Shown: positions 9,335 to 44,785, counted from the stretch's first letter. The stretch is 64,000 bases of DNA from an uncultured virus (IMG/VR IMGVR_UViG_3300032007_002222) (IMGVR_UViG_3300032007_002222), one strand, 5' to 3'. Notes: generated from the sequence alone by a model not told the origin. Made by a program: numbers and translations.

Positions 9335-9559
9335 TTATACTCCTCTTCTAAATTTGGTAATTCTTTCATAACAATAACCAGCTGGTGACTTACAACCACC
9401 TAATTGTTTACATACTAAATTTTCATTACATTCATAATGAAAAAACCCTAAATGTTTTTTAAAATAACAAGTAACACTACATGTAAGGTTACCTAAAGTA
9501 GGTTTAACAATTACTTTAGTTTTATCTTCCAACACAACGATTTGATTTGGTTTATGCAC
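9335..9559 (-). CDS. Small Cys-rich family protein (ends RGV)
   Basis: C..TCYF...C...C..CY pattern shared with the 24.5-38 kb family. Confidence 0.7.
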   Translation of the reverse strand: MHKPNQIVVLEDKTKVIVKPTLGNLTCSVTCYFKKHLGFFHYECNENLVCKQLGGCKSPAGYCYERITKFRRGV

Positions 9560-10418
9560 TATACTCCTCCGTCTAAACGTTTTGTAATCATATTAATTAA
9601 TGCTGCGTCATACGCCCCGAGATGCGTTATGAATATACATCCAATACCGCCGTCAGCGTAGCTTACTTCCAATATTTCTCCGGGTTCGTGCCACTCACCA
9701 CCATGATCTTTAAACTTATACAGCAGTTGTAATTTTGGTTTCATTACATATCCCCTACCAAATTTTTTATTATTACCCACATTTGAGCGGGCGTTCTGTT
9801 CTGTGCAATCAAATGTTCATAGCAATATATTTTTCCATCTTTTGTTAATTTTAAATCTACTTCTATATCTTTACACAACTCGTTCAACTCTTCAAATGTT
9901 TCTGGTACTTGTTCTTTTTCATAATGCCACCACTCTTCGGGATTTCCGCCACTACACAGATCTTCTTCATAAAAATCTTTTTCTCTTTCTTGAAAATGTT
10001 TAACCCAAAATTCGTCTTTAATTACTATTCTTTCTTTCATTTCTACTCCTCAATTTCATTTATTATTACCTTCATCTTTTTAATAATCTTATTCATTTGT
10101 TTATTCAGTTCTTTAAGTTCATAACATTCGTCAAATGCGTCTTTAAATTTCATACACTGAAAAAGTAAATCCACCTTTTCTTTTCCGATTTCTTTTGGCG
10201 TATAACCATTCTCCTTCAAAAAATCTGTTGCATCTGTTCTTGTTAATTCTGACATGTTAATCCTCCTTTTCTTTTTGTTTTTGCAATTCGAATATTGCAT
10301 TTCTTAAAAGCTTTATTTCATACTTCATTTCTTTTATATCAACTAAAATCTTACCGATATAAAAAGTTATTACTAGTACACAACCTATTGCAAAGCCCAT
10401 TATTCTTCTCCTTACAAT

Positions 10419-11465
10419 CTATTTTATATCTTCATTACAAAAGTACCAATACAATCCAACCATACATAACAATGTTAAGATAACTGTAATGATATACTGC
10501 ACTACTGTCGGCTGTTTTAAATAAGAAAATTGTTCAAAGTTAAATGGCTTATAATATTTCAGTATAATTGTAAACAACCTATCTAAATTAATACCATTAT
10601 CTAGTATATCCGTTTCAAGTGTAGTGCTTAATATTTCTTCTGCATACCAACCAAACACTTTAACATTTGTTGGCTTTTCTATATTCCCTGTAAAAGCAAT
10701 TATTATATCATTTTTCTTTCCATTATTCCAAGCCAATTTTGTTTTGTTTAGATCATCAACATCTTTAGCTTTCATTATAATCACATTACATTTAATAAGT
10801 TCATATAATTTTGTATTGAATATGTCTAAATCATTTTTAGTAATAATTCCATTTGGTGCAAGTAATCTATCATTTAAAAACCAATCATGTCTTTTAGGAT
10901 ATTCCTTATAATCTTTCTCTGTATTAAATAAACTTTGTCTACGCTTTATCGGATTATGCCATGATAGCATTGAGGTTGTAGGATATTTATATGTATTCAC
11001 TTTATTATCATAATAATATAAATTAGAATCTCCGCTTATACAAGTGCCACCATGTCTAAATCTGCTGTTTGTTTTCACGTGTTCCGTATCTTCAAAGTCC
11101 TTAACTATTTGGTCAAACTCTGCTTTAGTTATATCTTGATATTGACCTAATGAATCTATAGCAACCCAATGTTCTCTATGATGATCATATCCGGTTCTCG
11201 GTTGCATTGTAGTTGTTTTACCAACTTTGACCGGCACCATATATGTATATCGTTCAGTGAACGCCGGTAGATATTGAACCTCTGTTAGTTTACCAGAAGC
11301 ATAATAAACATCATTTGGAAATTTAATACAAGTAAATAAGAATACACCCAATGATACTAACACTGTTAAAGAACATAAAATAATAAATTCTTTGGTACTA
11401 ATTTCCTTGTTTATTATATAACCAAAACAACATAGTAACAATGATACAAGTATTATATAAATCAT
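10419..11465 (-). CDS. Membrane protein (2 N-terminal TMs, 1 C-terminal TM)
   Basis: Hydrophobic segments; W..GKKNDIII motif. Confidence 0.7.
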   Translation of the reverse strand: MIYIILVSLLLCCFGYIINKEISTKEFIILCSLTVLVSLGVFLFTCIKFPNDVYYASGKLTEVQYLPAFTERYTYMVPVKVGKTTTMQPRTGYDHHREHWVAIDSLGQYQDITKAEFDQIVKDFEDTEHVKTNSRFRHGGTCISGDSNLYYYDNKVNTYKYPTTSMLSWHNPIKRRQSLFNTEKDYKEYPKRHDWFLNDRLLAPNGIITKNDLDIFNTKLYELIKCNVIIMKAKDVDDLNKTKLAWNNGKKNDIIIAFTGNIEKPTNVKVFGWYAEEILSTTLETDILDNGINLDRLFTIILKYYKPFNFEQFSYLKQPTVVQYIITVILTLLCMVGLYWYFCNEDIK

Positions 11466-11995
11466 ATATTAATATCCTCTTCTTTTTGTGTATCAAAAAT
11501 TTGTTCCGTCTTACTTGACGTAACTATTTTTATATCCATTTCTTTTATACCAAGTAATGTACAATATATATTGTTTGGGAATGTTCTAATATATTTTTTA
11601 TACTCCTTCGATAAGTCTAATAATATTCTTTGTTGCTTAACAAAATCATCTCTACCAGCTATAATAGTATTATTTATTTCTTTGTAGATTGATGCATCAA
11701 AGTTTGGTACAGCTTCATGTGTCCAATTTACAAGCAAATTATCATTATCTATAGAACGTCCCGAAACATATGACTCAAGAATTTCTTTTAAACCCTGTTT
11801 ATATTTATCTGAAACTTGAGCAGTCTGCGATATCTTTTTCCACATATTATCGAACACAGACTCATTATCTTTTTGCTTTGCTTCTATTGCTGTTTGATAA
11901 TAAACCGAATTATTATAAACAGAAATTCCTTTACCTACTAAAACAAACCCAAAAACAACTACGAATAAAACCATACTAATTAATACTTTTTGCAT
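11462..11995 (-). CDS. LemA-like membrane-anchored protein
   Basis: N-terminal TM, helical body, Y..YIRTFPNNI motif. Confidence 0.55.
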   Translation of the reverse strand: MQKVLISMVLFVVVFGFVLVGKGISVYNNSVYYQTAIEAKQKDNESVFDNMWKKISQTAQVSDKYKQGLKEILESYVSGRSIDNDNLLVNWTHEAVPNFDASIYKEINNTIIAGRDDFVKQQRILLDLSKEYKKYIRTFPNNIYCTLLGIKEMDIKIVTSSKTEQIFDTQKEEDINI

Positions 11996-42748: not shown

Positions 42749-43093
42749 ATGAAAAAGAAAGTAAAAACCGTTGAGGTTATAAAGGAATATACTGAAGATG
42801 AAAGAAAGATCATGGAAGAAATCAAACGACTTCGTCTGTGTGTGTTGGTGCATTCCATTATATATTACCGGCTCAACACAAATATAGTATCTGATTATCA
42901 GTACGATAAGTTTGCAAAGAAACTTAAAGCCTTACAAGATAAGTATCCGGAACTAAGTAAAGCGGTTCCTGAATATAATAAAGAGTTTGAAGGTTGGGAC
43001 GGCTGTAGCGGTTATAACTTACCTCTAGGTGATATATGGGGATACGGTAAAGCACAATGGCTTGTAAAAGAATTTGGAAATAAAGAAGCTTGA
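42749..43093 (+). CDS. Stand-alone NAD-dependent DNA ligase subdomain Ia-like protein
   Basis: HSIIYY...IVSDYQYD....L..LQ.KYPEL motif of the LigA N-terminus. Confidence 0.8.
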   Translation: MKKKVKTVEVIKEYTEDERKIMEEIKRLRLCVLVHSIIYYRLNTNIVSDYQYDKFAKKLKALQDKYPELSKAVPEYNKEFEGWDGCSGYNLPLGDIWGYGKAQWLVKEFGNKEA

Positions 43094-43118
43094 CATTTAT
43101 TTTAAAATGTTGTATGCT
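43090..43118 (+). promoter_or_regulatory. sigma70-type promoter
   Basis: TTGACA-N17-TATGCT; AGGAG SD and ATG at 43140. Confidence 0.7.
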
Positions 43119-43139
43119 TTTGTAACAGGAGAAATAAAA

Positions 43140-44785
43140 ATGACAATAAGTATAACAAACATACCAATATTTGTCAATGTATCGCATAATATAGTTGACA
43201 AACTTCCTTCAAAGGAAACTTTAAGACGTAATGCAAATAGCCACGCATACTTTATTAACAATATGAATTACTATGCGGTTGTGGATATATTTAAAAAAAT
43301 ATTGAACACAGTTAACTCAGCTGAACGTCAGTTTACACACGCAGAAATTAGTAGAACCAACCAACTTAGATGGTTTATAAAAGCCATTAACGAAAACGGG
43401 ATTGCAGACGCTTCTATATATGTACGTGACATACCTGTTCTTTATATGGACTCCCCGGATGATTTTATTATGAAAAAAATATGTGACCTTGAATTCGATG
43501 ACTTTATTAAAATATATAGTGCACTTGTAATGAATGAAAGGCATTATTATGGTAAGACTGTAAGTATGGCAGTCCCGGAATATTTCGAATGGAGAGGATT
43601 ATAATGGATAGTAATTTTTTTCAACCTTATAATTATGAAAATCTTAAATGCGTTGGGCACACCATATTTATAAACAATATGCCGTATAGTGAAGTTAAGT
43701 ATTTATTTACCCGAATATATAATGAAGTTAATGCTCCGGTACTATCCAGCGGACCAATAGATTCACATGATTACTCATTAAAAAACGCTATCATTTCCTA
43801 CGGATTATCCGGTACATCTATTTGTATAAATAAAGGTAAAATAGATATTACTCAATCAGGCTTTGATCAAATTTGTGTAATCAAATTAGAAGACCTATCC
43901 TATGCTGACTTTCAAAATATATATTCGAAAATCAGATCATATCATACCGTAGATTCAGGCCAAACATTAAGTGATGCATGTCCGGAATATTTTTATTGGA
44001 GAGGATTATAATATGGCTGTAACCTCACCTTTATTTGATTCCATAGTAAAAGCTTTAGATGATTGTGTTATAAACCTCGATGAACGTCAACGAATAGATA
44101 AAGAAAATACTGAGCATATTAATTACTTTATATCTAAGCATCGTTGCAATATAGTTAACTATATGCCTATGGATTTAATGACAGTTATTCTACATAAACA
44201 ATATGATAGACAGAACTTAAAGTATCCGCTTCAATTATTCTATAAAGGACAACTATATACTATATCTGATGGTTTACTTGATCTAAATATAAGTGCATGT
44301 ATTGAAGCAGATATAGTCTATGCAACAACAGTCAAAATAATACCGATTGATTTTTTAGAAGCATATAGACCACATTCCTACGGAGGATTATAATGTTACT
44401 TAATTCAGCAAAGTTTAGTACATATACAAATAAATTTAATGCGATTATGAAGATATTATCTGACTTTAGAATTGAGGAAAAAGAACGAGGATCTGCTGAA
44501 AGAATAATAAAAAATATACGTTGTCGTACTTTAAAGGACTTAATCTATAATATTTTTCCGAAAAATTGGATCATTTTTGGTGAATTTTATGATCAATATA
44601 TAGATGATAGTAGTATAAAATACTTTAATATACGTGATTTAGGCTTTCCAACTTTACGTTATTTACAAACAAAAATGAATCAAATTGAAGTAATGTGTGA
44701 TAATTCCATTCAATGTTTCGATGATTTTATAAAAAATTCATCAAATTATGATAGCCCTCTTATATATGATCGTCCGGGATTATAA
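43140..44785 (+). other. Four-gene operon of 127-154 aa hypotheticals, all ending GL
   Basis: 43140..43604 (WRGL), 43604..44011 (WRGL), 44013..44393 (GGL), 44393..44785 (PGL). Confidence 0.8.

Follow-up and report, generated by a model that had tools for sequence, protein, structure and literature searches.

A stereotyped Gly-aliphatic gene end overlapping the Shine-Dalgarno site of the next gene in small-gene arrays of an uncultured jumbo phage lineage

In a 64,000-nt stretch of DNA from an uncultured virus (IMG/VR IMGVR_UViG_3300032007_002222; the whole stretch is called the window here), 41 open reading frames (ORFs) end in Gly followed by Ile, Leu or Val and the stop codon (G[ILV]-stop, referred to as the tail), 27 of them in GG[ILV]. 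A sequence-only reading of the window had reported these numbers, as 39 ORFs plus two short ones (21943-22113 and 41671-41790), and had proposed that selection acts on the protein terminus; we re-derived the same counts from the sequence. The GG was found to be the Shine-Dalgarno (SD) site of the next gene, written in frame into the end of the preceding one, and the comparison of homologs indicates that the penultimate Gly and the aliphatic last residue are under purifying selection, also where this site is no longer used. We favour, with a probability of about 0.5, a dual-coded gene end in which the Gly-aliphatic pair would be kept by an intrinsic role within the proteins' own C-terminal motif.

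Distribution of the tail and the Shine-Dalgarno junction

The analysis covers one phage lineage, sampled as two genomes and a few fragments, including a third lineage (L020). The second genome, G001, was reached through a MoxR-type protein with 83% identity and is a 300,445-bp IMG/VR contig rated 98% complete, of which bases 1-300,000 were analysed. Gene starts are our own calls, scoring used an assumed anti-SD sequence rather than one read from a host genome, and p values ignore shared ancestry, except for the family-level counts.

The tails cluster in two divergent arms, as had been claimed. The arms diverge at ~40.6 kb and hold approximately 33-37 of the 41 tails of the window (21.9-38.4 kb on the minus strand and 40.8-44.8 kb on the plus strand); four outlying tails are located at 9.3-17.8 kb (9335, 9559, 13547 and 17596), and no tail ORF was found at 1-9 kb or 46-64 kb. 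The tail-rich part of the minus arm (21943-38422) is an array of small genes, 27 with G[ILV]-stop, that is syntenic with G001. The plus arm (40790-44785) contains 14 genes, 10 with G[ILV]-stop, which confirms the earlier estimate of about 10 of 14, and its orthologs in G001 (9.5-12.9 kb) kept their tails. Based on our gene calls, the tail occurs on 39 of 135 genes in the window and on 43 of 411 genes in G001. In the latter, 40 of the 43 fall within the first 45 kb, and the rate beyond 50 kb (2/267 genes) is that predicted by the frequency of internal G[ILVM] dipeptides (1.2-1.4%). This distribution shows that the feature is conserved between the two phages and confined to one genome region, hereafter the region, which is counted over both genomes. 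About a third of the tails have a single Gly (x-G-aliphatic), and a wider motif covers the last nine residues, with F/Y/L at position -8, I/L/V at -5 and K/E at -4.

The typical gene end in the region reads GGA-GGT-NTN-TAA-TG, or in a fuller form (A/G)AA-GGA-GGT-NTN-TAA(TG). The junction GGAGGTATATAATG (26493-26506, minus strand) represents the type, with GGA GGT ATA TAA and a next ATG that starts with the last A of the stop. GGAGG is the SD site of the next gene, and is followed by six bases and then by the ATG sharing its A with the stop codon. An exact GGAGG was found 6-10 nt before a start and inside the upstream ORF at 41 of 43 junctions of the form GGAGG-N-NTN-stop, the other two (36978 and 41793) having no adjacent start. 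Stop codons that overlap or abut the next ATG in this way give translational coupling. The stop overlaps the next start or lies at most 3 nt from it in 61 of the 78 tail genes of the region, and among genes whose stop abuts the next start the tail is present on 61 of 87 in the region compared to 4 of 103 elsewhere. The GG of the penultimate pair is thus explained by the in-frame SD site written there, and the trivial explanation that the sequence-only reading had granted for many cases is correct for the GG itself. An enrichment of SD-like hexamers at the 3′ ends of genes, where they act for the gene downstream, has been described as a general phenomenon (Diwan and Agashe 2016, PMC4943179); the region resembles such coupling in the GGAGG inside the upstream gene, its spacing to the start and the stop/start overlap, a likeness that explains both the GG and the frequent occurrence of tails on coupled genes.

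The last two codons beyond coupling

Coupling leaves the identity of the last codon unexplained. This codon was NTN (I, L, V or M) in all 43 genes of the region that end in GGAGG-N-NNN-stop, while outside the region only two genes have the same ending, one giving GGA and one GGI. As a control, [AG]AAGGAGGTNNNTAATG was scanned in unrelated IMG/VR viral contigs, with at least 229 matches, and 119 of the matches listed were flanked on either side by ORFs of 50 codons or more. Among these listed junctions, the codon before the stop encoded K (34), E (16), Q (12), N (9), F (8) or I (8) most frequently, and I/L/V/M in 18 of 119 (9/34 at a GC content below 0.36), significantly different from 43/43 in the region (Fisher p = 4e-25). 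The difference was also significant when one case per family was counted (15/15 versus 9/34 of the listed control matches with GC < 0.36; p = 8e-7). At intergenic SD sites of the same phages with a 6-nt spacing, a T was found at the corresponding position in 7 of 16 cases. At its third position the last codon can have any of the four bases (A, T, G or C), while the preceding T is fixed. Phe was never seen as the last residue, with 4.7 cases expected from the base frequencies at the first and third codon positions (P = 0.004, uncorrected for relatedness).

The register of the junction is equally constrained. Where stop and start overlap by 1 nt, GGAGG lies 9 nt ahead of the stop at 25 of 26 junctions, and where 0-3 nt separate stop and ATG it does so at 16 of 22; outside the region the offsets ranged from 7 to 13, with 0 of 10 at 9 (p = 2.5e-4). 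The distance from the SD site to the stop is therefore fixed, and that to the ATG varies from 6 to 10 nt. For a by-product of coupling, the frame and residues should vary with the spacing and the codon after the SD site should be free, and neither was observed. The region differs from in-frame SD coupling, as presented in PMC4943179, in that the SD site is locked to the stop and to one frame with the next codon always aliphatic, and in that the Gly-aliphatic end persists where the SD site is unused, which is not so in the 119 control junctions listed.

Uncoupled genes, defined as those without a start within -4 to +3 nt of the stop, had the tail at a frequency of 17/86 in the region and 0/270 elsewhere (Fisher p = 9e-12; p = 3e-15 compared to the dipeptide background). 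The nine exceptions to coupling that had been named were each found as described. A separate SD site 10-14 nt downstream is present for the genes ending in HGL (22747), NGI (26863), SGL (27403), TGV (37579) and EGV (40965-41195); gaps of 23, 32 and 45 nt follow the IGL (21943), CGL (28460) and GGL (36978) genes, respectively; and the PGL gene (44393) has no co-oriented downstream gene. In both phages, the final plus-arm gene is among those with an uncoupled tail (PGL and NGI), and indels directly precede this end.

Homologs provided a second line of evidence. Among 69 reciprocal-best pairs between the window and G001, the tail was present in one or both members of 22 and in both members of 21. 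The Gly at position -2 was identical in 21 of these 22 pairs, compared to 50% identity pooled over positions -3 to -12 (p = 5e-6) and to 40% at position -2 of pairs without the tail. The last residue was identical in nine tail pairs and different in 12, always within I/L/V/M, for which the chance is below 0.01 by a rough single-step argument, and the second position of the last codon was unchanged in all 21 pairs although 12 changed the residue. In the single pair that lost the tail (35932), the overlap with the next gene changed too. Uncoupled ortholog pairs kept the tail as HGL/NGI, NGI/KGL and IGL/IGI, and the L020 lineage has GGL on the ortholog of an ankyrin-like protein and IGI on that of the uncoupled 21943 gene. 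More generally, homologs ended in KGGV, KEGV, KGV or RGV where the register of the SD site had shifted, and in NGI, KGL, SGL or HGL where the site was gone. Among 24 multi-member BLAST families with the tail, 22 had it on every member. A word-based protein search with the 22747 protein returned close relatives only (5 matches, all ending in [HY]GL), and one with the 28460 protein returned a single match.

The enrichment survived the removal of all ORFs whose stop abuts the next start, and GGAGG was not kept in varying frames, homologs instead keeping the Gly-aliphatic end while the SD site shifts or vanishes. As both checks left the enrichment in place, selection on the last two codons is real. 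The claim that selection acts on the protein terminus consequently stands for these two codons, on the evidence of orthologs and uncoupled genes, but not for the GG itself, which is the SD site, and the cases are not independent of each other.

Protein families and explanations for the tail

The 41 tails do not represent independent cases: 19 belong to one paralogous family with four Cys residues, and others to families A and F and to plus-arm families. Iterated hidden Markov model (HMM) searches in the two genomes recovered 32 + 5 four-Cys members of 56-124 aa, 19 of them in the window, and 36 of the 37 end in G[ILVM]. In alignment A3, C33, C36, C46 and C59 (CxxC...C...C) and the penultimate G75 are invariant, and the conserved C-terminal motif [FY]-x-x-[ILV]-[KE]-G-G-[ILV] runs precisely up to the junction. 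When 1.84 billion representatives were searched with a profile, 69 matches were obtained, 57 of them ending in G[VILM], with G, E, K, S, N, D or R at position -3; four short members in this public library lacked the Gly-aliphatic end. The variation at position -3 means that within the family the SD site moves or vanishes while the Gly-aliphatic end stays. The four-Cys proteins had no match in Pfam or PHROG, none in the Protein Data Bank (PDB) by Foldseek at E ≤ 0.001, and, for one protein tested by tblastn, none in 50,697 phage records; the ESM Atlas returned unnamed viral clusters only. By these searches, the four-Cys family is an undescribed and expanded one that accounts for about half of the tails, and its members are probably host-takeover or anti-defence proteins. 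It adds a new, expanding protein family to those known from uncultured jumbo phages.

The remaining tails are spread over 12 or more further small families of the array, namely A (two paralogs per genome), F (four in tandem), small plus-arm families and singles such as the ankyrin-like protein. Comparisons by hhalign among 14 tail families gave no significant link (best probability 17%), by which a common superfamily is neither shown nor excluded; a "K-x-G-D-x-I" start and an end formed by a strand plus the tail seemed common to several families, which is only an impression. The AlphaFold model of a four-Cys protein (pLDDT 86) has a beta-hairpin, helices and one strand, and that of a family A protein (pLDDT 87) has helices and beta barrels, a different fold, for which Foldseek returned weak Tudor/chromo-barrel rows only. 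In both models, the last 4-5 residues are coil past the final strand, with a last-block pLDDT of 72 and 73. The earlier statement that the tail occurs on unrelated folds is supported by at least 13 sequence-unrelated families and the two differing models, but less so for its examples, as the ankyrin match was below the Pfam gathering score and the Tudor/SH3-like assignment comes from the weak Foldseek rows.

In the reading that we favour, the tail would be the protein-level face of a stereotyped 3′ gene end that recurs in small accessory genes of probably early operons. Each gene of the array would carry the ribosome-binding site for whichever gene comes next, and the Gly-aliphatic pair would be retained within the proteins' own C-terminal motif, affecting fold or stability, rather than as a signal for a dedicated sorting or conjugation system. 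We prefer such an intrinsic role to a dedicated signal because half of the cases are one family and because no reader was found in the 394 proteins scanned. The Pfam scans (137 window proteins at E ≤ 1e-3 and 257 of the 411 G001 proteins at E ≤ 1e-5, the other 154 being small or chunk-spanning) contained no Clp, Lon, PDZ, Tsp, protease or adaptor match that could indicate tag-reading machinery, and for conjugation no E1, E2, JAB or Ulp-like/clan CE match, although small or novel enzymes could escape them. If the tail is only a dual-coded end, it is a natural example of how dozens of proteins can have their last residues set by a ribosome-binding site, and of small accessory genes whose design may allow gain and loss without disrupting the expression of their neighbours.

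Several points weigh against this preference. The absence of Phe indicates discrimination at the level of the amino acid, which an intrinsic role does not account for; the coil that ends both models resembles an exposed linear motif more than a packed element; and it is not parsimonious to assign a structural role separately to 13 or more sequence-unrelated families, for which a shared cause would fit better. Two full genomes and a few fragments of one lineage also provide paralogs and orthologs that are not independent samples. Furthermore, the bacteria-wide C-terminal bias reported by Weber et al. 2020 (PMC7246954) enriches K/R and depletes V/I/L/M, and the same source describes lower expression with V/I/L/M C-termini and, for Mycoplasma pneumoniae, a reduced protein level with hydrophobic ends via degradation.

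An alternative explanation, which we regard as possible but doubtful, is a functional C-terminal signal that is dual-coded with the SD site on early accessory proteins, likeliest a weak degron that would limit the lifetime of host-takeover proteins and otherwise a docking tip for a common partner. It would account for the persistence of the tail on uncoupled genes, including the last genes of the plus arm and the uncoupled ortholog pairs, for one end on at least 13 families with differing predicted folds, for its position as coil beyond the last strand, and for the GGA that the identical junction yields outside the region besides GGI. Several early proteins of lambda and Mu are unstable through C-terminal signals; ssrA-type LAA ends are read by ClpXP, and non-polar ends by Tsp/Prc. 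The tail is similar to such degrons in that proteins with nothing else in common share a short hydrophobic end. The destabilizing effect of hydrophobic C-termini has been described as general (PMC7246954), and a last residue that is aliphatic and never Phe is the opposite of the general bias given there. However, the word here is G-[ILV], not LAA or Ala-rich. No reader was detected by Pfam, descent suffices for the half of the cases that form one family, most tails are SD-coupled, by which Gly(-2) is constrained anyway, and the four short four-Cys members in the public library do without the end. The degron or sorting role proposed earlier gains from the shared end and its uncoupled persistence and loses from the missing reader. 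Tentatively, the tailed proteins might share a common fate through G-[ILV]-COOH, most plausibly timed degradation or docking to one hub, with the MoxR and HExxH/VWA pair encoded in the middle of the array as a candidate reader by its position only. Should the signal be true, no C-terminal tag shared across a class of phage early proteins would have preceded it.

The tail is unlikely to be a pure by-product, that is, the translation of an SD site and an AT-rich spacer without selection on the protein end, with uncoupled cases as chance events or undecayed relics. The prevalence of abutting starts among the tail genes (61/78) and the SD-like hexamers reported at gene 3′ ends (PMC4943179) agree with it, and one clear relic exists, the uncoupled ECGL end of 28460, whose ortholog in G001 ends in EGGL and is coupled. 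However, a by-product does not explain the invariant NTN codon, which had no equivalent among the control matches listed or in the T of intergenic SD spacers, nor the register tied to the stop instead of the start, the constant second codon position in ortholog pairs that changed the residue, or the enrichment of uncoupled tails over the dipeptide background. For annotation, C-terminal motif enrichment should be judged against both SD position and paralogy, and the two corrections do not always erase the signal.

We consider it improbable that the end acts in termination and reinitiation. In that case, the terminating ribosome would pass more readily to the next start when, at the stop codon, its E site holds a Gly-tRNA and its P site an aliphatic tRNA, or through the RNA word GGNNUNUAA. 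In agreement with such a role, the motif always keeps the same frame and distance relative to the stop, however far away the ATG is, and many of the "uncoupled" genes still have a next start 10-14 nt away. However, the tail is kept where reinitiation is impossible (at the ends of the plus arm and across gaps of 23 to 111 nt), and Phe codons are absent despite frequent TTA, ATT and GTT, which an amino-acid reading fits better. We know of no P-site rule of this kind in print, although no dedicated literature search was made.

GG-X precursors resembling those of ubiquitin-like proteins, in which the last residue is removed and the exposed GG conjugated, are a very unlikely explanation. LxGG is the cleavage word of ubiquitin-type and adenain-type proteases, and the [ILV]-[KE]-G-G-X end at the very C-terminus resembles this word, with position -5 hydrophobic in 75% of four-Cys tails, 61% of other tails and 41% of non-tail genes of the region. 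This reading, which had been raised before, fails on the fold, as neither model has a beta-grasp; the single Gly of many tails and the absence of conjugation or deconjugation domains from the Pfam scans further separate the tail from ubiquitin-like systems. Finally, we rejected the possibility that NTA-TAA-TG is kept as a -10 box (TATAAT) giving each gene its own promoter: promoter-like matches were slightly more frequent than in shuffles (64 versus 49 +/- 7 at 34.0-46.5 kb), but the base varies at the third position of the last codon, where the box would need its invariant A, and it is the preceding T that is fixed; the junction matches also lack good -35 boxes.

The gene array, its possible turnover and the phage lineage

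The four-Cys genes of the minus arm are arranged in groups. Three tandem genes end in GGV, GGL and GGI (24558-24794, 24791-25021 and 25018-25248; assigned by the HMM family and alignment), three more (25731-25970, 25970-26254 and 26256-26495) form a block that is not in G001, and three uncoupled ones with a separate SD site after each are found at 26863-27180 (NGI), 27155-27391 (GGV) and 27403-27621 (SGL). Two genes ending in GGL follow (29011-29208 and 29205-29459), then three at 33507-33770 (GGI), 33763-34056 (GGV) and 34056-34325 (GGV), and four within 36978-38198, of which 36978-37205 (GGL) and 37579-37917 (TGV) are uncoupled and the other two are 37205-37567 (GGI) and 37869-38198 (GGV). 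An outlying member (9335-9559, minus strand) ends in RGV and has an ortholog at 39894-40124 of G001. After gene 36978-37205, a 45-nt intergenic element, GGTTGGTCGC...CCTAATATATAGACCTGGAGG (36933-36977, minus strand; counterpart at 16686-16730 of G001), is near-identical in both phages while the flanking genes have diverged, and may be a promoter or regulatory site.

Other tail genes of the minus strand are the two family A paralogs (22747-24010; HGL uncoupled, GGV coupled), with a shared end SESxLxKIKxG[ILV] and a predicted C-terminal Tudor/SH3-like barrel, single-family proteins of 160 aa (25248-25730; GGL, ortholog GGV) and 117 aa (26495-26848; GGI), the 184-aa protein discussed above for its ECGL end (28460-29014), and a 56-aa protein (21943-22113) whose IGL end is uncoupled, as is the IGI end of its L020 ortholog. 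The ankyrin-like protein (35169-35975) ends in GGI, as does its ortholog in G001. A sigma-70-type promoter matching the consensus at 12/12 positions (35947-35975, minus strand) lies inside the minus arm at the overlap of 35932-36291 and 35169-35975, which coincides with the sole place where an ortholog pair lost the tail. On the plus strand, six small genes (40790-41999) end in KGV, EGV, GGI, GGI (with GGC as the first Gly codon), MGV and GGI, and the four tandem paralogs of family F (43074-44785) end in RGL, RGL, GGL and PGL, the last without a downstream gene. The MoxR-type AAA+ ATPase (31405-32502) and the DUF2201 protein (30130-31392) in the middle of the array (30130-32502, minus strand) have no tail; the latter has intact HETLH (zincin-like) and DTSGS (metal ion-dependent adhesion site, MIDAS) motifs, and the pair, with 76-83% identity between the phages, comprises the best conserved genes within the tail-rich array. 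Another small paralog family with its own stereotyped end was seen outside the arms: the ORFs 5459-5653 and 6553-6792 (minus strand) share the end EQNNGN with the last 21 nt identical, and similar NNG-type ends occur in G001 at 41.4-42.2 kb.

Three four-Cys genes (25731-26495) that separate 26495-26848 from 25248-25730 in the window are missing between the orthologs of these two genes in G001, and both ends of this indel, one case and the only one mapped at base level, fall in the junction motif. The array may grow and shrink as entire genes are acquired or lost, with the junction motif as the site of the breakpoints, the recombination itself being deduced from the compared sequences. Gain and loss of genes that carry the SD site of the next gene would explain why SD site and stop stay together while the ATG gap varies. 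A comparable system could be the PeSL cassettes of T4-type phages, reported in PMC2839356 and PMC4122927 as a conserved promoter and stem-loop at gene boundaries with modular shuffling in hyperplastic regions. Both have a short boundary motif at small, variable early accessory genes, and the one indel mapped here has its ends in the motif, but here the motif is a ribosome-binding site and stop inside the coding sequence, not an intergenic promoter/terminator, and recombination is deduced from one indel. The promoter/terminator scan found no PeSL-like pairs of promoter and stem-loop terminator at the junctions.

Just upstream of the plus arm, a sigma-70-type promoter (40735-40764, plus strand) matches the consensus at 12/12 positions (TTGACA-18-TATAAT); this consensus match suggests early transcription by the host RNA polymerase, and both divergent arms are probably early operons. 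The GC content is 0.37-0.40 at 36000-42000, around the divergent promoter region, and ~0.28 elsewhere. The window as a whole has a GC content of ~29% and a high coding density under the standard bacterial code (table 11), and with no suppressor tRNAs alternative genetic codes were ruled out. Pfam matches in the window include a helicase, RuvB-like and MoxR-type ATPases, ThyX, dUTPase, a cold-shock protein and a head-fibre-like protein. Megablast with 16 kb of the window gave no match among cultured phages, and tblastn with three window proteins gave distant matches only. Synteny with G001 runs from 41.2 kb down to 19.6 kb of the window, with patchy identity (65-88%) and differing gene content. 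G001 encodes baseplate and sheath-initiator proteins, Cpn60, PolA, the Pol III alpha subunit, two RecA-like proteins, NrdD and NAD-salvage enzymes; from this gene content, the lineage is an uncultured low-GC jumbo myophage, probably of an anaerobic host.

A cluster of eight tRNA calls (45112-46099, minus strand) comprises Pro, Met, Asn, Thr, Gln, Ser, Ser and an odd call with a two-base anticodon (46026-46099); a sigma-70-type promoter with 12/12 matches (46323-46295) lies ahead of it, and its counterpart in G001 is at 8.4-9.2 kb. A 2186-aa protein without a Pfam match (57394-63954, minus strand) adjoins a 792-aa protein with head-fibre and F5/8 type C domains. LAGLIDADG and Hint signatures in a 504-aa ATPase/helicase-like protein (46604-48118, minus strand) probably indicate an intein; G001 has the same gene, and intein signatures also in RtcB, a ribonucleotide reductase and another protein. 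G001 also contains four dispersed TnpB/OrfB_IS605-type genes (L008 12501-13655, L010 4320-5456, L011 10750-11934 and L014 11626-12777).

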